From an uncultured Armatimonadetes bacterium (GTDB lineage Bacteria; Armatimonadota; UBA5829; DTJY01): a stretch of DNA of 64,000 bases. The notes below the pieces were generated by a model that had not been told where the DNA came from, did not search any database, and saw only the letters and a list, made by a program, of their open reading frames with translations. The stretch lies in contig OY970325.1 in NCBI GenBank assembly GCA_963717145.1, positions 320,001 through 384,000 of the forward strand, read 5' to 3'. This document shows positions 37,857-47,363 of this stretch, piece after piece; the first letter of the stretch is position 1, and the number at the start of each line of letters is the position of its first letter. A program made the position numbers and the translations under genes.

Positions 37857-39444
37857 CAGCCTGTCTGAGAATTCCCCGCTATGTGGGTGAGTTTCCCATC
37901 TGCGGGGTCGCGCTGGCTGCTGTTCGATAGTGTTTTTCGCCGGATTTCCGGCGAGGGTCTGTAAAGACCCCTTGTACCTTGATAATCAGCCTGATCCAGG
38001 TCATATATCTACGTATCGAAGATCGATTTCCGGTCGCCGTATCGGTATAGCTTCAGCATGTTGTGCCCAAGACACGCAAGCGTCCACTCCGACTTCGCTT
38101 TCGCAAGGCCTCGGAGTAGGAAGCCTCGGAAGTTCCGTGCGCTCTTGATCTGGCCGAACACCGGCTCTACCGTCTCCTTCCGCCTCCCGTAGATCTTTCG
38201 GCCAAGAGGAGTCAAGAGCTTTGCTCTCTGGCGATCTGCGGCGGATTGCTTTGCCGGATCAAGGCAGGAAGGCGCCGTCGGCTCTTTGCCATGACGTTGT
38301 CTGTCAGGCGGTATATAAGCGTCGATCCCTTGCTGCTCGACCATCTCTATGTTGTCGCTGCTGAAGTATCCGGCATCGGCGGATAGTTCTTCCGGTTTCT
38401 TTCCGGTGTTCTCCTTGATTGCCTCGATCATGTCACTAAGATGCGGTGAGTCCGCTGCCTGGTTCGTGAGATCACACGCCACTACAATCTGATGATCTGC
38501 GTCTACCGCAGCTTGTCCGTTGTATGCCTGCACGAAGGCTTTCTTTGCGTCCTTCATTATCCGGCTTTCCGGGTCTGTGAAGTTCCGCTGTGCCTTCCCT
38601 TCCGGCTCTGTCTTTACGGGCCCCGGCTCTCTGCCGCGAGGCTTCTTCCCGGATGCTTCCTGCTCCGCCTTCTCTTGGGCTCGCATCGCTTCTTCGGCTG
38701 ATGCTCGCTCTTTGGCCTCGCGCTCCAGCGCTTCTTTTGCTTCCCTGATCTTGGCGAGCCGCTTCTCTCTGGTTGCGAGTTCCTCCGGGAGTTCGTCTCC
38801 TCGGCGGTCAAGACCATATTCCGCGTCTTCCTGGTCGTCCACAGAAAGACCCTTCGCAAGGAGCGCCTCGATCTCAGCCTGAAGCTCTTTTTCTTTCTCG
38901 ACCATCCGAGAGTAGCTCATGGCGGAGTGCTTGCTTGCGTTGGCAAGCAGCTTTGTTCCGTCTATGGCTATGTGTTTCATCGACACAAGCCCGGCGCTTG
39001 CGCATAGCCTGAGCACTTGCACAAACAGGTCCGCAAGGGACTTGAGATGCCTCTTCCTGAACTCGCTTATCGTGCGGAAGTCGGGATGATTTCCTGCCGC
39101 AAGCACCCGGAAGGCTACATCTTCATACGTGGCCAGGGAGAGCTTTCGAGATGAATACACTCCCCGGCACAAACCGTAGAATATGATCTTTGTAAGCATT
39201 GCCGGATGGAACGGCGGCGCTCCTCGGGCCTCTTTCTCGTATGAGGCGTATATCGCGGAAAGGTCGAGACTGTCTACGACATCGCTCACAAAGTATGCGA
39301 GATGTCCCTCGGGCAGCCACTCCGACATCAAGGGCGGCAACAGCAATATCTGGTCAGGTTGATAAGGAAGGTATGGCTTGCTCATACCCGTATTTTACTA
39401 CATACCTGGCACCTTGCGCCAGAGGTTATTTCATGGACAGGCTG
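37857..39444 (-). mobile_element. IS1182-family insertion sequence
   Basis: Terminal inverted repeats CAGCCTGTC / GACAGGCTG, each flanked by CTAG (37853-37856 and 39445-39448). Confidence 0.88.
38009..39385 (-). CDS. IS1182-family DDE transposase
   Basis: LLPPLMSEWLPEGHLA, PDFRTISEFR, IDGTK, NFTDPESRIM, ADAGY, VEPVFGQIK. Confidence 0.95.
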   Translation of the reverse strand: MSKPYLPYQPDQILLLPPLMSEWLPEGHLAYFVSDVVDSLDLSAIYASYEKEARGAPPFHPAMLTKIIFYGLCRGVYSSRKLSLATYEDVAFRVLAAGNHPDFRTISEFRKRHLKSLADLFVQVLRLCASAGLVSMKHIAIDGTKLLANASKHSAMSYSRMVEKEKELQAEIEALLAKGLSVDDQEDAEYGLDRRGDELPEELATREKRLAKIREAKEALEREAKERASAEEAMRAQEKAEQEASGKKPRGREPGPVKTEPEGKAQRNFTDPESRIMKDAKKAFVQAYNGQAAVDADHQIVVACDLTNQAADSPHLSDMIEAIKENTGKKPEELSADAGYFSSDNIEMVEQQGIDAYIPPDRQRHGKEPTAPSCLDPAKQSAADRQRAKLLTPLGRKIYGRRKETVEPVFGQIKSARNFRGFLLRGLAKAKSEWTLACLGHNMLKLYRYGDRKSIFDT

Positions 39445-39457
39445 CTAGGAGGTAACT

Positions 39458-39844
39458 ATGGCAAAGAAGAATCGTATTTTCATCAGTTTCGCCGTTGAGG
39501 ACAAGACCTACCGTGATCTCCTCGTCGGACAGGCAAGGAATGAGAAGAGCCCGTTTGAGTTCATGGACATGTCTGTCAAGCAGCCGTGGGACAGTGCCTG
39601 GAAGACAAGCTGCCGGACGAAGGTCAAGGGATGTGATGGCATCATCGCTCTCGTCAGCAAGAATACCGCCAACGCCACCGGACAGCTCTGGGAGGTATCG
39701 TGCAGCAAGGAAGAGGGCATTCCGCTGCGCGGCATCTACGTGGATGCCGATAACAAGCCGGCCTCCCTTCCCGCCGAGTTCTCAGGTATACGTGTCGTCA
39801 ATTGGACATGGGAGAATATCTCAAGCTTCCTGGACTCGCTCTAG
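39458..39844 (+). CDS. Stand-alone TIR domain protein (ThsB/DUF1863-like)
   Basis: RIFISFAVED, CDGIIALVSKNT, putative catalytic Glu in QLWEV; GGAGG RBS. Confidence 0.85.
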   Translation: MAKKNRIFISFAVEDKTYRDLLVGQARNEKSPFEFMDMSVKQPWDSAWKTSCRTKVKGCDGIIALVSKNTANATGQLWEVSCSKEEGIPLRGIYVDADNKPASLPAEFSGIRVVNWTWENISSFLDSL

Positions 39845-39853
39845 GAGGGATGT

Positions 39854-40813
39854 ATGACTAAGGTCGCATTACTTGTCGGAATCGACGATTATCCGAGTTC
39901 ACCACTCGCCGGTTGTGTCAAGGATGCAACACGCATGGCGGAACTGCTGAGTCGCCACCATGACGACTCGCCGAACTTCGACTGCCGAACACTGACCGCT
40001 CCGGCTCACACCCCAACGACTGTGACTCGACCGATACTGAAGCATGCGGTGGAGGAAGTGTTCACGCGCAGAGCCGACGTCGCGCTTTTCTACTTCTCGG
40101 GGCATGGAACTGTAAACAATCTCGGCGGTTACCTTGTTACGCAGGATGCAAGCCGGTATGATGAAGGGTTGAGCATGACCGACGTGCTGGTGTTCGCCAA
40201 TGGCTCGCCGGCCAGGGAGAAGATCATCGTGCTTGATTGCTGCCACAGCGGAGCTATGGGTCAGTTGCCTGCCATCAACAACGACGCCGCCATGCTCAGA
40301 GAAGGCGTCTCTATTCTGAGCGCCTGCCGGGAATCCGAGGTGGCGCTAGAAACGAATGGCGGAGGACTGTTCACCTCGCTGGTCTGCGATGCATTGAATG
40401 GTGGGGCCGCCGATGTATGTGGCAGAGTCACTATAGCTGGAGTCTATGCCTACGTGGATGAGGCGCTCGGCGGATGGGACCAGCGACCGCTCTTCAAGAT
40501 ACACGTGTCCAAGCTTGTTCCGTTGCGTAACTGCATGCCGGCGGTAGATCCCGAGATCCTTCGCATGCTTCCGAAGTATTTCAAGGCTCCGAAGGATGAG
40601 TATCCCCTTGATCCTTCGTATGAGCCGATGGAGAAACCGCGCCATGAGGAACACGAGAAGGTATTCGGTCATCTGCAGAAGCTTCGCGCGGCGCGACTCG
40701 TCAGTCCTGTGGGTGAGGAACACCTCTACTTCGCAGCTCTGAACTCGAAATCCTGCCGGTTGACTGCTCTTGGTGCCTTCTACTGGCGTTTGGCCAACGG
40801 CGGGAAGATCTGA
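39854..40813 (+). CDS. Caspase-like protease (peptidase C14)
   Basis: KVALLVGIDDY, GCVKDA, His-Cys dyad FYFSGHG / LDCCHSG, GLFTSL..GGAAD. Confidence 0.93.
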   Translation: MTKVALLVGIDDYPSSPLAGCVKDATRMAELLSRHHDDSPNFDCRTLTAPAHTPTTVTRPILKHAVEEVFTRRADVALFYFSGHGTVNNLGGYLVTQDASRYDEGLSMTDVLVFANGSPAREKIIVLDCCHSGAMGQLPAINNDAAMLREGVSILSACRESEVALETNGGGLFTSLVCDALNGGAADVCGRVTIAGVYAYVDEALGGWDQRPLFKIHVSKLVPLRNCMPAVDPEILRMLPKYFKAPKDEYPLDPSYEPMEKPRHEEHEKVFGHLQKLRAARLVSPVGEEHLYFAALNSKSCRLTALGAFYWRLANGGKI

Positions 40814-41298
40814 TGACAAAGGTCGGCATCACAGGGCATCAGCGATTGGATGATCCCGGATCATGGGGCTGGGTCGAGTCAACAATTGCCGCTGAACTCG
40901 CTCTGCTCAGCCCTCCTCTTACCGCACTCAGTTCTCTTGCGGTTGGCGCTGACCAGATGTTTGCGCTCATGCTCTTGCGTCTCGGTGGAGGAGTTCGCGC
41001 AGTAATCCCGTTCGTCGACTACGAGCGCACCTTCGGAAGCGAGACCATCGACACATATCGAGACCTTTTGTCCAGATCAGAGTCCGTAGACGTACTCCCG
41101 AAACAGGATACCGACGAGGAGTCATACTTGGCCGCAGGCAAGCGCGTTGTAGACCAAGCTGACGTAATCGTGGCGGTTTGGAATGGATTCCCTGCCAAAG
41201 GAAAGGGCGGTACCGCCGATATTGTCGCGTATGCCATCGGCAAGGGGATCCCCGTCATTCATATTAACCCTGTCGAGCGGACGGTGACCCGGAAATGA
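40813..41298 (+). CDS. SLOG-superfamily (YspA-like) nucleotide-binding protein
   Basis: VGITGH, LAVGADQ, AVWNG..GGTADIVAYA; start overlaps the caspase stop. Confidence 0.8.
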   Translation: MTKVGITGHQRLDDPGSWGWVESTIAAELALLSPPLTALSSLAVGADQMFALMLLRLGGGVRAVIPFVDYERTFGSETIDTYRDLLSRSESVDVLPKQDTDEESYLAAGKRVVDQADVIVAVWNGFPAKGKGGTADIVAYAIGKGIPVIHINPVERTVTRK

Positions 41299-41414
41299 AT
41301 GCGTGGGCGTAGGCAATGGCGTGAGGTCCCCCGTGCTCACTTGAAATCGTCCCGTCGGCACGGGTCTAAATGAGGTCTGCGTATCCGCTGGTTCGTTGGA
41401 GGAAGGAGTACTAG

Positions 41415-42780
41415 GTGTGCAAAGCAGTCTGGAGTGACGACAGGGTTCGCTATTTCATAGAGAGGGCTGAGCTGTATGCTGAACGGGGTCAGCATTCGAA
41501 AGTCTCCGCATGTCTGGAGACTGCTCTATCCATCGGGGCGGATCTTCCGGAAGGCGAGCAGGCAAAGCTTCATGTTCGGTTAGCTGAGGCTTTCCGGAAT
41601 CTCCAGCAGAATCGGGCTGCTATCCGCCACTACGAGCGCGCTCTGGAATGGAGTGGCCTTGATTGTCCTGGCGACATCATACACGCGATCGGCGCCTTGT
41701 ATCATCGCCAGCGTGAGCATGAGGTGGCGCTGAAGTACTACGCGGATGCACTATTGCGGAATCCGTCCCTCCCTGGTGATGTGTACTACGACATGGCCGC
41801 GACGTACCGGCGCATGGAAGAATACGAGCGTGCTCTGGGGTGCTATGATCTCAGCCTGGCTTGTATGTCTGGCAAGGAACGCTCCGTGATGGACTGGGAG
41901 ATCGAGCGGAGCCGTGGCGTTGTACACTGGCATAATGGGGATCTGGGGATTGCGGAGAGTTGCTTCCGCAGTGTACTGAAGTCTGGGCTGTGTGATATCC
42001 CAGGCAACGTGTACAATGATCTCGGCATAATCCACCATGCCCGCGGTAGACTGAAGGAAGCCGAGGATTGTCTAGACAAGGCGGCGGCCGATACCCAACC
42101 TGATACGAGCGCGTCAGGGTTATTTCACCTTGGCGAGCTGTATGAAGCGCAGGGTAGATATGGTGAGGCGGCGGTGAGTTACCGACAAGCGGAGAAGAAC
42201 TACCTGTTGGCGAATACCCTCGGGATCACTAGTCCCAAGTCCACCGAGTCCAATCTCAGCAAGGCTCGTGGGAGGATAGCGGTTCTGCAGCACAGGCAGA
42301 TACTCGACTGCTACAAGGTGGGTAAGGAGTGTCCTCACAATGTTGCGGACCTCCAGATGAATATGGTGTTCGTGGCGATGCCATTTGGGCAGGACCGGGA
42401 GAAGGATGGTCTGGGACCACATATACCAAGCCGGGATCAAGCCAGCGATCGAGGAGGTGGCCAGGCTAACGTGCACTAGAGCGGATGAGATCCATTATCC
42501 TCCCGACGATATGTGCAAGGTGTGCCTTGGTATACAGAAGGCTGGAATGGTTGTAGCGGACCTTACGGATGGGAACCCGAACGTCTTCTATGAGGTGGGT
42601 CTCGCCCATGCCTTGCAGAAGACCGTGGTTCTGGTGGCCCGGTCAGGCCAGAAGCAGCCTTTCGACCTGAAGAGCATGGACTGCATCCACTATGGGAAGC
42701 CTGAGGAGTTGAGGCAGGTCCTTGGGGAACGTCTCAGGGGTATACTGGAAGCCAAGCATTCGCAGTTCCCGCAGGAGTAG
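41415..42780 (+). CDS. TPR-repeat protein with C-terminal nucleoside 2-deoxyribosyltransferase/TIR-like domain; +1 frameshift near 42404
   Basis: About 6 TPR-like helical pairs, then VFVAMPF; continues in another frame as IKPAIE..RADEI..ADLTDGNPNVFYEVGLAHA..PFDL. Confidence 0.75.
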
Positions 42781-43097: not shown

Positions 43098-45892
43098 ATG
43101 GCGCTGGCAAACCTTTACGTTCAGTTCAAGCAAGACCCCGAGGCCGAGAGCCTCTCGAAACAGCTACGGGAACTCGGCTATCACGTCGATGATGTGCGGA
43201 TCGAGCGGGTCATCCGCCTCGAAGGGGATATGGATGTCGGGGAGCTGACACCGCTCCTCGTCAACCCGATCTACCAGACCTCGTCCCGCGAGTCGGCGCT
43301 CGACCCCGCGGACGGCCCGATCGTCGAGATCGGATACCAGCGCGCGGTGACCGACCCCGAGACTCCCTCGATCTTCGACGGCGCGAACGCCCTGAGGGTC
43401 GAGGGCCTCGAATGGGCGCGACTCAGTCAGCGGTACCAGTTCATCGGCGCGTCACCCGATGAGGCGAAGCGCATTACGAAAGAAAACCTTTTCAATCCCA
43501 TCGTCCAGGCCCTCATCGAGAGCGAGCATCCCTGGGATTCCCTTCGTCCGCACGGAATGCCCGACCCGGTGAAGCAGATCTCGCTCGCGGGACTGTCCGA
43601 CGAACAACTGATGAAGCTGAGCGCCGACGGCTCATGGTACGCGCCTTTGAGTCAGATGAAGGCATTGCAGCAGTACGAGCGCAGATCGGCCGCCCGCTCA
43701 CCGATGCGGAGATCGAGATCACGGTCCAGTCCTGGTCGGACCACTGCTATCACACGACCTGGCGGAGTCTGAAGCTCCTGGAAAAGCTCCAGGCGGCGAC
43801 GGCGAAGATCAACCATCCCTCGGTCGTCTCCGTGTTCAAAGACAACGCCGGCGGGATGAAGTTCTACGACGGCGAGGTCATCCTCATCAAGGGCGAGACC
43901 CACAATTTTCCCTCCTCGATCGCCACATTCGGCGGAGTCGCGACCAAGCACGGCGGCGTGATCCGCGACGCGATCGGCTTCGGGTAGGGCGGATATCCCA
44001 TCGGCGGCTCGACGATCATGGGCACGATGGACCCGCGCATGAAGTCCGAGGATGTCCCCGGCGGGGCGCTCCATCCGCGCGTGATCCTGCTCGAATCGAT
44101 CCGCGCGACGGCGTACTACTGCAACCCGATGGGCATCCCGATGATGTACCCGATCTACCGCATGCATCCCGGCTACCCGAAGTGCCTGGCGCTCGGGCAC
44201 ACGCTCGGCATCATCCCCGAGAAGTACGCGCTCAAGGACGACCCGCGTCCCGGCGATTCCCTCGTGCTCTTCGGCGGCCGCACGGGCCGCGACGGAATCC
44301 ACGGCGCGACCGCCTCTTCCGCCGAGATGACCGGCGAGACGATCCACAAGGAGGCCGCCGCCGTGCAGATCGGCCACCCGATCACCGAGCGGAAGTTCAT
44401 GACCGCCGTGCCTGAGCTGCGCGACGCGGATTGTTTGCGCTCGTTCACCGATCTCGGCGCGGGCGGACTCTCATGCGCGGCGGGTGAGATGGGTGCGGAG
44501 ACCGGAGTCCGCGTCGATCTGGCGACGGTCCCGCTGAAGGACGAAAGCCTCGCGCCGTGGGAGATCCTGCTCTCGGAGTCGCAGGAGCGGATGGCGGTGG
44601 CGATTCCTCCCGAGAAACTCGAGGAGGCGCTCGAAATCCTGCGGCGATACGACATCGAGTACGCGGTGATCGGCGAGTTCACGGACACGCACAAGCTCAC
44701 GGCATTCCACGGCGACCAACTCGTCGCCGATCTCGATATGCAGTTCCTCTGGAAGGCCTGCCCGATCGACCCCATTGAAGTGAAGCAGCCGATGAGACGG
44801 ATGGGACGGATGGGACGGATGGGACCGAAGAGCCCGTCGGAGTGGCAGGATGCCGTCGAGAAGGTGCTCGCTCACCTCCACTGCTGCGATCAGTCGCGCG
44901 CGGGGACGCAGTTCGATTCGACGGTCCAGGGGCGCACGGTCATCGGCCCGTACGGCGGGAAGAACGGCCGCATGCCGACCAACGTGTTCGTCTCCGCGCC
45001 GATACGCGGGAAGCCCTACGGCGTCGCCACGACCCTGGCGTTCAACCCGTTCTACGCGGAGATCGATCCCGCGGGAATGGCCCGGCTCTCGATGGTCGAG
45101 GCGATCGCAAAGGCGGTGGCGGTGGGCGTGAGCCTCGACGACATCGCGCTGTGCGACAATTTCTACACGCCGAAGATTCGCCCCGAGAGCGCCTGGGAGC
45201 TGAAGGAGATGGTCGAGACGATCGCCGACCTCTCGATGATCTTCGGGACACCGTTCATCTCGGGCAAGGATTCCAGCTCCGGCACGTTCAAGTCGGACAC
45301 CGGGGAACTGATCGACGTGCCGAACACGCTCTGCGTTTCGACGCTCGGCCGGATGCCGGATGTGCGCAAGGCCGTCACCAAGGAGTTCAAGCAGGCGGGG
45401 AACAAGCTGATCGTTCTCGGCAGGCTCGATCCTGAGCGGCTCGGCGGCTCGGTCTACCTCGATGCATACGGCGAGCGCGGCGACAAGCTTTCCGATTGGG
45501 GACAGGAGTGGACGAAGGACCTCGTCGTTCTCTACAATAAGCTGCATCAGATCTACTGGAACGACAATCCGATCCGGTCGGCCTCCGCGATCGCCGAGGG
45601 TGGGGTGCTCCTCCGCCTGTTCGAAGCGTCGATGGGAGGTGGATTGGGCGTCGAGGTCGAGAGTAAGGCGGCTGGCATGCTCTTCACCGAGGCGGTCGGC
45701 GCGCTCCTGCTCGAAGTAGATGCCTCCGCCGATCCGCTCCAACTCCTGAGCGGCCTGCCGTGGATCGAAATCGGCCGGGTGACCGAATCGTCCGAGTTGG
45801 CGATCACCGATGGGGGCCGGGAGGTCTTCCGTGAGCCGATCGCCGATCTCGTCAAGGTCTGGGAGAAGCCCTTCGCGGAGGTAGTCGGATGA
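43098..45892 (+). pseudogene. purL: PurS-like/PurL fusion (FGAM synthase) with one frameshift (about 43683) and an in-frame TAG (43985-43987)
   Basis: QSWSDHCYH, KGETHNFPS, GRDGIHGAT, DLGAGG, SESQERM, FISGKDS. Confidence 0.85.
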
Positions 45893-46641
45893 ACCCGCAA
45901 CCCATAACCCATAACCCAAAACCCGTCGTCGCCGTCCTCTATGGTCCGGGCATCAACTGCCACGAGGAAGCGGCGTTCGCCGTCGAAGCCGCCGGTCTCG
46001 ATGCGAAGATCGTCAACCTTGAGACCGTCCTGGCGGGCGAGGACAAGCTCACCGACTACCAGGCGATGATCGTCCCCGGCGGATTCTCATGGGGCGACCA
46101 CCTCGGCGCGGGCCGCGTCTTCGGCGTGCATCTCACCGCGCGGCTGACCGATCAGCTCAACGAACTCGTCGAGACCGGCAAGCCGATCCTCGGCATCTGC
46201 AACGGATTTCAGATCATCGTCGAGGCCGGACTGCTCCCCGACCGGACCGTCGGCCATCGGACCGCCGCTCTCCTCCAGAACCGGTCCGCGCGCTTCGAGA
46301 GCCGCTGGGTCGAACTCGTCGTCACCGACGCCGACAGCATTTGGACGAAGGGACTCGAGGGGCGAATCCTCCGCATGCCGGTTGCGCATGGTGAGGGCCG
46401 ATTGTTCCGGGATGACGACAAGTCGTTCCGCGCGGCGCTCTGTTACGCCAAGGAAGGCAAGCCGACGGAGGAGTACCCGGCGAACCCCGGCGGCACTCCC
46501 GGCGGCATCACCGGCATCTGCGACTCCACCGGCCTGATCTTCGGCATGATGCCGCACCCCGAGCGCGCCTGCCTGGACTGGCACGGCTCCTCCGACGGCA
46601 TGGAACTCTTCAATAACCTGACGAGGTATCTCCGTGGCTAG
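45889..46641 (+). CDS. purQ: FGAM synthase glutaminase subunit
   Basis: PGGFSWGD, GICNGFQ, AHGEG, MMPHPER. Confidence 0.96.
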   Translation: MNPQPITHNPKPVVAVLYGPGINCHEEAAFAVEAAGLDAKIVNLETVLAGEDKLTDYQAMIVPGGFSWGDHLGAGRVFGVHLTARLTDQLNELVETGKPILGICNGFQIIVEAGLLPDRTVGHRTAALLQNRSARFESRWVELVVTDADSIWTKGLEGRILRMPVAHGEGRLFRDDDKSFRAALCYAKEGKPTEEYPANPGGTPGGITGICDSTGLIFGMMPHPERACLDWHGSSDGMELFNNLTRYLRG

Positions 46642-46957
46642 CATCGAGGAACGACAGATCATTGATCGAATGGTCGGGCGCATAGCGGAGATGTTCCACC
46701 CGGAGAAGATCATCCTCTTCGGCTCCATGGCGCGTGGTGATCAGACCGGCGACAGTGACGTGGATCTGCTGGTCATCGTCAGAGAGGTGAGCGACCGCCG
46801 CTCGTTGAGTGTGGCCATGCGTCGCGCGGTCAACGGCATGGGGTTGCCCAAAGACATCGTTGTGCTCACCACGGAGGAGTTCGAGCGCAAGCGGAACATA
46901 CCGGGGACTATCGCCTATCCTGCCGAGCATGAAGGGATGGTGCTCTATGCCGCCTAG
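46634..46957 (+). CDS. Minimal nucleotidyltransferase (MNT) antitoxin
   Basis: LFGSMARGD..SDVDLLV. Confidence 0.9.
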   Translation: MASIEERQIIDRMVGRIAEMFHPEKIILFGSMARGDQTGDSDVDLLVIVREVSDRRSLSVAMRRAVNGMGLPKDIVVLTTEEFERKRNIPGTIAYPAEHEGMVLYAA

Positions 46958-47363
46958 GGAAGTCATGGAAGAGGTCGCCGCCTGGATAGCCAAAGCGGAG
47001 AGTGATCTCAAGAACATAAAACTGGTATTGCCAGCAGAGGATGCGCCGTTTGACACTGTCTACTTCCATGCGCAACAGGCTGCAGAGAAGTACCTGAAGG
47101 CCTTGTTGGTCTTCTATGGGATACCGATCAGGAAGACACACGACTTATATGAACTGCTCATAATGTTGCCAAGTAGTTCCTCGGTCCCTGCGGAGGTCGG
47201 CGATCTGAGTGACCTAACGGATGCTGCGGTTGCTGCCAGATACCCGGAAATGGGCATCACATATGATCGGAAGACCGCCACCGACAAGCTAGAGGAAGCC
47301 GAGCTGGTCAAGGCATCTGTCCTCGATGAGTTGGCATCCCAAGGGTACGTCCATCCGACGTAA
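46947..47363 (+). CDS. HEPN-domain protein
   Basis: KAESDL, FHAQQAAEKYLKA, THDL, ARYP. Confidence 0.88.
   Translation: MPPREVMEEVAAWIAKAESDLKNIKLVLPAEDAPFDTVYFHAQQAAEKYLKALLVFYGIPIRKTHDLYELLIMLPSSSSVPAEVGDLSDLTDAAVAARYPEMGITYDRKTATDKLEEAELVKASVLDELASQGYVHPT

Follow-up and report, generated by a model that had tools for sequence, protein, structure and literature searches.

The 64,000-nucleotide stretch analysed here (hereafter the window) corresponds to positions 320,001 to 384,000 of contig OY970325.1 from an uncultured Armatimonadetes bacterium, whose genome (G000) was assembled as a single contig of 5.37 Mb with a GC content of 60.6% (window G000:C1:320001-384000). It carries four co-oriented genes encoding a short TIR protein, a caspase-like protease, a SLOG protein and, as gene 4 (41415-42780, forward strand), a protein joining classical TPRs to a putative N-glycosidase domain of the nucleoside deoxyribosyltransferase (NDT)/DNPH1 superfamily. 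Gene 4 is interrupted by one extra base, and sequence comparison identifies its two reading frames as one gene. The locus appears as a type IV Thoeris system extended by a SLOG protein and by a permuted, rare ThsI-like glycosidase. By analogy with described systems, there is a prospect only a little short of even that gene 4 belongs, as the fourth member, to a composite Thoeris-type system, in which it would form a second effector arm, a TPR-gated N-glycosidase.

Gene 4 is present in the assembly as two overlapping open reading frames (ORFs). ORF1 (41415-42479) starts with GTG and encodes 354 residues in frame 0; ORF2 (42385-42780) encodes 131 residues in frame +1 and overlaps ORF1 by 95 nucleotides. 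The frame 0 part of the gene (41415-42389) comprises the TPR array (approximately residues 9-297), a cysteine-bearing linker and the first strand of the glycosidase domain, FVAMPFG, after which ORF1 continues with unconserved residues up to its stop. ORF2 also opens with unconserved residues and, from 42409, reads VWDHIYQAGIKPAIEE...RADE...ADLTDGNPNVFYEVGLAHA...PFD, the frame +1 part (42409-42780) supplying the rest of the domain. Since FVAMPFG lies in frame 0 and ends at 42389 and WDHIYQAGIKPAI lies in frame +1 and begins at 42412, the extra base was mapped to 42390-42411. A first-pass annotation, made from the letters of the stretch and a list of its ORFs, had placed this base near 42404, and had named the motifs DCYKVGKECPH, FVAMPF, RADE, ADLT and NPNVFYEVGLAHA, all of which are present. 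It had also anticipated that gene callers would miss the fusion, as is to be expected in this assembly, where the two ORFs lie in different frames.

Reading gene 4 through the break gave a protein of 454 residues (P0001), and residues 300-454 of P0001 were used as a query. Among 1043 candidates (249-795 residues), 717 proteins matched at E <= 1e-3. The best three TPR-bearing matches are P0002 (454 residues), P0003 (458 residues) and P0005 (456 residues), P0002 matching at E 4.9e-31 over 99% of the region. All three are intact and align with P0001 from end to end, with identities of 38, 37 and 33%, respectively, so that the proposed fusion of TPRs and an NDT-like domain in one gene was upheld. 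A 931-nucleotide contig from the public metagenome run X1, covering 41828-42756, has exactly one base fewer than the window, at 42410; the frame is therefore intact in a close relative. On these alignments ORF1 and ORF2 are a single gene, split by one base, with a predicted product of about 454 residues. Programmed frameshifting was considered and set aside: the interval 42390-42411 contains no evident slippery sequence, and a single frame is used both by the orthologues and in the contig of the relative.

Profile comparison places the C-terminal domain of the gene 4 product in the NDT/DNPH1 ('DRHyd') superfamily, as a putative N-glycosidase with a predicted Rossmann-like fold, and all family-invariant residues are kept. 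A profile built from 42 domain sequences (A4) was matched against PDB sequences and retrieved Rcl/DNPH1 (E 1.3e-5 to 7e-5), Cap12 (E 3.4e-4), the nucleoside 2-deoxyribosyltransferase 2a0k (E 0.033) and PycTIR (E 0.035), in agreement with the NDT/TIR-like character claimed at first. The matches to DNPH1/Rcl and NDT structures (PDB 2klh, 4fyh and 2a0k) span E 1.3e-5 to 0.033 and align the glutamate of FYE(V/L)G with that of GYELG in DNPH1, which we take to be the DNPH1 nucleophile. Unlike the window protein, these enzymes are small, stand-alone and metabolic. Eight residues are invariant in 79 family members (R355, D357, N389, Y392, E393, P415, F416 and D417 in P0002 numbering), and counterparts of all eight are found in the window read-through (alignment A1): RADE (R355/D357) is encoded from 42478, FYEVG (N389/Y392/E393) has its glutamate codon at 42592-42594, and the PFD motif follows. 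The match of ORF2 to Pfam PF05014 is below threshold (18.6 bits, cut-off 28.8; E 0.0021), and the P0001 read-through gave no PF05014 match at E <= 0.01. ORF2 matches the PADLOC 'Effector TIR' model (8e-9, over 57 residues) and no Pfam TIR model matches the domain. The domain would be kin to TIR at the level of the fold and scores closer to DNPH1. In the AlphaFold2 model of P0002, residues 317-453 form alternating strands and helices with a pLDDT (predicted local distance difference test) above 90. An NDT-TPR-S-SLOG protein encoded at locus L005 has an N-terminal domain that shares 40% identity with the window's domain (E 3e-20).

The N-terminal half of the product contains about seven classical TPRs, ORF1 being matched by the Pfam families TPR_2, TPR_1 and TPR_12 at E 7e-25 to 6e-21. 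The model of the intact homologue P0002 (pLDDT 90.1) shows helical repeats at residues 4-297 followed by a short hairpin-like linker. Its best matches in a fold search were LGN/Pins and designed TPR proteins (Z 25.7-23), Rap/NprR-type receptors scoring Z 19-20. The fold comparison that the first-pass annotation had proposed as a check thereby recovered the TPR superhelix; both searches, made with the whole model, listed TPR proteins only. P0001 gave no match to TPR-S (PF20308) or to PF13281 at E <= 0.01. The linker DCYKVGKECPH (42306-42338, forward strand) carries a cysteine pair that is invariant in the four TPR-linker-NDT proteins. In P0001, P0002, P0003 and P0005 both linker cysteines, C299 and C306, and those of a CxxC motif in the enzyme domain, C367 and C370, are invariant (alignment A1), whereas the family as a whole does not conserve these four. 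From this pattern the linker may be tied to the enzyme domain by a zinc site; the linker itself was modelled at low confidence (pLDDT 58-67).

The three genes preceding gene 4 lie on the same strand. Gene 1 (39458-39844) encodes a short ThsB-like TIR protein of 128 residues (Pfam ThsB_TIR, 4e-07; PADLOC ThsB, 4.9e-06), 34-35% identical to the TIRs adjoining NDT-TPR-S genes at two loci, L030 and L007. Gene 2 (39854-40813) encodes a caspase-like protease of 319 residues (Peptidase_C14, 5.5e-18) resembling ThsE of type IV Thoeris, with an invariant His/Cys dyad (H84 and C130) and a conserved C-terminal half. A search with the caspase found 5618 proteins at E <= 1e-3 among 7796 candidates; the best 120 of these 5618 relatives are 62-100% identical and 289-378 residues long, and the source names of the relatives span Dehalococcoides, Nostocaceae and Actinophytocola. 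Full-length homologues (44-53% identity) were found behind short TIRs on Proteus, Bacillus and Escherichia coli plasmids, and a scan of viral contigs found no relative of the caspase. Gene 3 (40813-41298), whose start overlaps the caspase stop, encodes a stand-alone protein of 161 residues without a Pfam or NCBIfam match, and the profile of its family matched nothing significant among PDB sequences. By its predicted structure (AlphaFold2, pLDDT 93.4) it is a SLOG protein of the YpsA type, as first proposed: Foldseek aligned it with YpsA 2nx2 (E 5.4e-9, TM-score 0.79), and with ShosA, DprA (E 1.5e-5), LOG-like carriers and the SLOG domain of ThsA, 7uxs (E 2e-3). A prediction of a complex between the caspase (A6) and the SLOG protein (A3) returned 'no answer' with a score of 0.00 and weighs neither way.

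Gene 4 begins 116 nucleotides after the end of gene 3 (41298 to 41415), exactly as described at first, and simple scans found no promoter-like or terminator-like site in this gap. The GC content is 0.548-0.569 across genes 1-4 and an adjoining insertion sequence (IS), against 0.61-0.65 in the flanking pur genes. The IS-type DDE transposase (38009-39385, reverse strand; Pfam DDE_Tnp_1 4e-16, DDE_Tnp_1_6 and DUF772; GC 0.561) marks the left edge of the insert. No orthologue of gene 4 was found in the 60 relatives searched, and none of the caspase at E <= 1e-30 in 400 other genomes of the phylum. Because of the uniformly low GC content, the gap free of promoter-like and terminator-like sites and the lack of orthologues in these relatives, genes 1-4 and the IS look like one mobile insert between pur genes, apparently acquired as a block. 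Run X1, one DNA sequencing run with a match (share 0.06), contains contigs about 90% identical to genes 1-4 and one purL contig about 85% identical. These contigs span the TIR, caspase, SLOG and TPR-glycosidase genes, and the order of the four genes is common to the window and this relative. No RNA sequencing run was listed with a match to the locus. Further downstream, two overlapping small ORFs lie 3' of purQ (46634-47363), which by eye we take to be a nucleotidyltransferase/HEPN-type toxin-antitoxin pair.

Operons of related composition occur on plasmids. A tblastn search with the caspase found 111 plasmid records, 50 with a query coverage of 80% or more, and the SLOG protein found 48 records, 19 at that coverage. 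Proteus pPp47 and E. coli pCREC-591_1 carry the two-gene order TIR-caspase. Bacillus subtilis pBS72 (L197) continues this order with a 162-residue protein 44% identical to gene 3 (E 2e-40) and with an ORF of 92 residues, and Agrobacterium pTiCFBP5877 (L199) has TIR-caspase-SLOG with a 168-residue TIR nearby on the other strand. In Rhizobium bangladeshense p3 (L200) the order TIR-caspase-SLOG is followed by a second TIR of 168 residues, and in Methylorubrum pB146-1 (L201) the order is SLOG-TIR-caspase-second TIR. The second TIRs match PF13676 (E 1e-8 to 6e-13) and are without BLAST similarity to P0001. The three-gene TIR-caspase-SLOG form thus recurs, and its fourth place can hold another enzyme of TIR/NDT fold. 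The TPR-glycosidase of the window would fit this pattern as an analogue and not as a homologue. The four-component variant suggested by the first-pass annotation accordingly finds analogues in Rhizobium and Methylorubrum. A Novosphingobium plasmid (L202) encodes, in this order, a TIR, an 8xMP membrane protein, a SLOG homologue and a HEPN protein, SLOG being accompanied there by TIR without caspase.

The neighbourhoods of the glycosidase domain were then charted. Genome and metagenome contigs were scanned with the full-length alignment A1 and 160 loci were kept, all matching the enzyme domain only; the TPR half of gene 4 was matched by none of them. ORFs were called in six frames and neighbours were detected with hidden Markov models seeded with the four proteins of the window (three rounds, E <= 1e-5). 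The glycosidase domain is N-terminal at 132 loci, C-terminal at 14, and in mid-protein or spanning the whole ORF at another 14. At 65 loci it is fused to a C-terminal homologue of the window SLOG protein, and these proteins also hold TPR-S; in none of them does the fused SLOG region overlap that of the glycosidase, and alignment A3 shows motifs that it shares with the SLOG family. A separate SLOG-domain gene, often encoding about 550 residues and carrying DUF4231/SLATT, lies within 5 kb at 30 loci. A caspase gene was found within this distance at 24 loci, 23 of which have the fused SLOG, mostly directly downstream on the same strand. TIR genes are equally close at 23 loci, typically as a pair of a 130-180-residue TIR and a protein of about 460 residues in which Pfam recognizes MAP3K_TRAF_bd and TPR-S, the proteins of about 650 residues likewise carrying TPR-S. 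Only two of the 160 loci have both caspase and TIR within 5 kb. A wider link therefore exists between the glycosidase domain and TIR, SLOG and caspase genes; the two plasmid members of the window's own clade that were examined stand alone.

Several of these loci are of interest in their own right. Locus L005 (9989-12873) and some 22 similar loci encode a 650-residue glycosidase/TPR-S/SLOG protein with a caspase directly behind; the L005 pair lies between what, from their look, we take to be contractile-sheath-like genes and a CHAT-like ORF of 1865 residues. A Nitrospira metagenome-assembled genome contains a TIR island (L030, 4288-15054) with a ThsB-like TIR, a TIR-TPR protein, a glycosidase-TPR-S protein, a TIR-like protein, a pYEATS-TIR protein and a caspase. 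On the E. coli IncP plasmid pKMi029_2 (L203), a 'TRAFs-binding domain-containing protein' (glycosidase and TPR-S) is followed by two TIR genes and has a DUF4231 gene beside it; this arrangement looks like type VIII Thoeris with a SLATT-type second effector. Two further copies of the glycosidase domain are encoded in the genome of the window, far from it, one C-terminal (L002, 928-1803, 291 residues) and one N-terminal (L003, 997-1956, 319 residues), each with a partner region without known family.

Described systems share parts of this organization. In the preprint defining it, type VIII Thoeris consists of a TIR and of ThsI, which joins a 'CMP hydrolase' domain to TPRs and is named as the effector (10.64898/2025.12.03.692087). 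The same text credits Aravind with the prediction that the TPR of ThsI acts in TIR signalling, and reports that type VIII TIRs make canonical cADPR, which halts the growth of system-carrying cells when added to the medium; its authors guess that ThsI manipulates the nucleotide pool, and they mention that operons combining ThsI with the SLATT effector ThsH occur, though rarely (10.64898/2025.12.03.692087). ThsI proteins are probably those that PGAP calls 'TRAFs-binding domain-containing protein' (PF13281 and PF20308). The window protein, compared with ThsI by description, likewise joins an NDT-superfamily glycosidase to TPR-type repeats and is encoded with a short TIR, three genes upstream on the same strand. 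The glycosidase domains of ThsI-type proteins are 35-40% identical to that of the window, and their short TIRs are homologous to the window TIR. However, ThsI-type proteins begin with the glycosidase and continue with TPR-S, whereas the window protein has classical TPRs, the cysteine linker and then the glycosidase. Proteins of loci L030, L007 and L019 match PF20308/PF13281 at E 1e-47 to 6e-25, which the window protein does not, and its glycosidase falls outside the TPR-S-linked clade. On these comparisons it resembles ThsI in its parts and is not a member of the ThsI family.

A second precedent is the BcTir/BcTpr pair of Bacillus cereus, here too compared by description, in which a TIR gene is paired with a glycosidase-TPR protein. 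BcTpr (N-terminal glycosidase followed by TPR) is reported to deplete NAD+ and to make a cADPR isomer, and TIR, YpsA, LSDAT, calcineurin and caspase partners are charted there among 78 Tpr homologues (10.1101/2023.05.26.542521). Unlike the window protein, BcTpr has the glycosidase at its N-terminus and works in a two-gene system. The DRHyd domain is classed among messenger-generating domains by Kaur et al. 2020. That this glycosidase domain is generally linked to TPRs, TIR, SLOG and caspases has thus been published before, and the first-pass annotation went too far in calling the arrangement undescribed: NDT-like effectors with TPRs beside TIRs are found in type VIII ThsI (10.64898/2025.12.03.692087) and in BcTir/Tpr (10.1101/2023.05.26.542521). 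Genes 1 and 2 correspond to type IV Thoeris, presented in its preprint as two genes, a short TIR and a caspase-like protease, ThsE, activated by N7-cADPR (10.1101/2024.10.24.620036). As in that system, a short TIR lies directly upstream of a caspase with a conserved C-terminal domain and dyad (ThsE compared by description); unlike it, the window and several plasmids add a SLOG gene and often a fourth gene. The main texts of this preprint and of a 2026 sponge paper (PMC13243611) do not mention SLOG as a part of the system, a 'third gene' or TPR, although their supplementary tables may bear on the point. Literature searches on YpsA, caspase and TIR together returned, apart from an unrelated paper, solely the BcTir/Tpr preprint and Kaur et al. 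2020. A multi-gene TIR-caspase-SLOG form of type IV Thoeris was not found described in the main texts searched. The NDT-TPR-S-SLOG and caspase loci of Rhodocyclaceae and others (L005) hold the same four domain types as genes 2-4 of the window; they differ in that three of the domains are fused, in the order of domains, in TPR type and in clade, and a TIR is undetected in 22 of the 23.

As the fourth component of a composite system, gene 4 would act as follows. The TIR would sense infection and, by analogy with type IV, make an ADP-ribose-derived signal switching on the caspase. The TPR array would be engaged by a protein or peptide ligand, turning on the glycosidase, which would then cleave NAD+ or a nucleotide at its N-glycosidic bond, draining the cell for the phage. 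The SLOG protein may act as a regulator that binds the signal of the TIR or a related nucleotide, in analogy to the SLOG domain of ThsA and to the SLOG-SLATT neighbours. A role as effector is preferred to one as signal generator because ThsI is the named effector of type VIII Thoeris and because the proteins of the window's clade keep the glycosidase domain constant while their regulator-type domains vary (TPR, HEAT, Hsp70-like, CheY and GAF).

Several observations, given in this paragraph and the next, weigh against such a role, and the first is that gene 4 is frameshifted in the only assembly of this genome. The extra base could be real, leaving gene 4 a true pseudogene and the island running on three genes; that it is truly present in the organism is a minority prospect, though a sizeable one. 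Three-gene TIR-caspase-SLOG versions do exist, as on the Agrobacterium pTi plasmid, pBS72 having the further 92-residue ORF. On the other hand, all family-invariant residues are kept, no second lesion was found in the 1.36 kb of gene 4, and the frame of the close relative is intact. The same assembly also breaks purS/purL (43098-45892), about 1.3 kb 3' of gene 4, at two sites within 1.6 kb downstream: the frame shifts near 43680, and a TAG stands in frame at 43985-43987. Contigs of X1 read through both lesions, one having an extra base behind 43680 and another, from a more distant organism, carrying other letters at 43984-43987. Since the assembly also breaks purL so close by, the extra base of gene 4 may be an assembly error. 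To assess the assembly, 246 long ORFs from 400 kb of a genome of the same family (G008) were queried against G000: 125 matched at 40% identity or more, with 13 frameshift-like junctions over 54,365 aligned residues. The reciprocal control, with 78,981 aligned residues in 231 query-locus pairs, gave 14 rows at 5 distinct G008 sites. Frameshift-like junctions alone were used, since many in-frame stops were counted whichever genome served as query. ORF-length statistics revealed no clear difference from reference loci, and the sequence context of the frameshift sites shows no common motif. Stop-codon recoding was rejected, as the in-frame stops use all three codons opposite many different residues. 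The G000 assembly probably carries indel errors, for which its annotation should allow, and gene 4 is probably intact in the population.

The remaining objections come from the gene itself and from its kin, and several of them favor an independent one-gene defence, in which the TPRs would sense a phage protein and the glycosidase would abort infection with no exchange of signal with the TIR-caspase-SLOG genes. Gene 4 has its own strong Shine-Dalgarno stretch, GGAGGAAGGAG at 41398-41408, after the 116-nucleotide gap. The 160 loci are not independent, many being from Rhodocyclaceae and some contigs being present in both collections, and the 14 with a C-terminal domain lack any caspase or SLOG gene within 5 kb, a TIR being present at one of them, L119. 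A quick maximum-likelihood tree of 173 domain sequences (127 columns kept, rooted at the midpoint, without domain hits shorter than 100 residues and without locus rows exceeding 70% identity to one already kept, the careful search being unfinished) sets apart, with an SH-aLRT support of 96, a clade of 40 domains linked to TPR-S, whether or not SLOG is fused to them, and a group of 133. The group of 133 holds P0001, P0002, P0003 and P0005, together with domains fused to Mrr_cat, Hsp70-like, HEAT, CheY, GAF or TIR; the domain is N-terminal in 74 and C-terminal in 47 of 121 of its members, and its N-terminal partners are highly varied. Two plasmid members with a C-terminal domain stand alone, one of 252 residues beside integrases in Agrobacterium and one of 279 residues directly behind a type II restriction-modification system in Sphingorhabdus. 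The TPRs of the window are classical, not TPR-S, and its domain order is reversed with respect to ThsI. The closest kin of the window protein thus give no independent support for a coupling to TIR or caspase, and the independent module keeps its weight because the closest kin examined stand alone. Moreover, TIR-caspase works as a two-gene system according to the type IV preprint, and occurs so on the Proteus and E. coli plasmids. Against independence, the same four genes recur in a related organism, the block has a uniform GC content with no terminator-like site in the gap, an enzyme of TIR fold fills the fourth slot on the Rhizobium and Methylorubrum plasmids, and SLOG, TIR and caspase genes are close companions of the sister clade. 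On balance, a stand-alone defence seems rather unlikely.

A second signal generator, in which the TPR-sensing glycosidase would turn NAD+ into an ADP-ribose-derived messenger read by SLOG or caspase and would widen the range of phages sensed, as is thought for extra ThsB genes, is improbable; in the type VIII preprint, the TIR makes cADPR and the NDT-TPR protein is the named effector. This reading keeps some weight because a small TIR takes the fourth slot on the Rhizobium and Methylorubrum plasmids and because no TIR was detected within 5 kb at 22 of the 23 NDT-TPR-S-SLOG and caspase loci, which would need a non-TIR starter, although distant TIRs in the Rhodocyclaceae among them may have escaped the profile used. 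The cADPR isomer reported for BcTpr and the listing of DRHyd among messenger-generating domains point the same way.

A bolder proposal, which we consider unlikely, is that TIR-caspase-SLOG with a second enzyme of TIR fold, either a small TIR, as on the Rhizobium and Methylorubrum plasmids, or a TPR-DRHyd protein, as in the window, constitutes an undescribed multi-component subtype of type IV Thoeris with a signal-processing layer made of SLOG and glycosidase. Such a layer might set a threshold for, convert or destroy a signal of the N7-cADPR type. Alternatively, the TPR-DRHyd protein could be a latent hydrolase freed by the caspase, an Arg-specific protease that would cut the Arg-rich, Cys-stapled linker and so release the NAD+/nucleotide hydrolase. 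If true, linker cleavage would couple proteolytic and metabolic killing.

Thoeris systems are now classified by their effectors, and nearly every one is regarded as a single TIR with a single effector. In the locus of the window and in the plasmid loci, the TIR-caspase pair travels with a SLOG protein and often with a further enzyme of TIR fold. If the parts act together, type IV Thoeris would have an unstudied regulatory or second-effector layer. The TPR-linker-glycosidase layout indicates that sensor domains of very different kinds can precede a glycosidase domain of the ThsI type, which gives a handle on the putative role of this domain in the cleavage of NAD+ or nucleotides apart from TPR-S. 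Overall, the most useful outcome is the pointer to multi-gene systems composed of TIR, caspase, SLOG and, in some cases, a further component.

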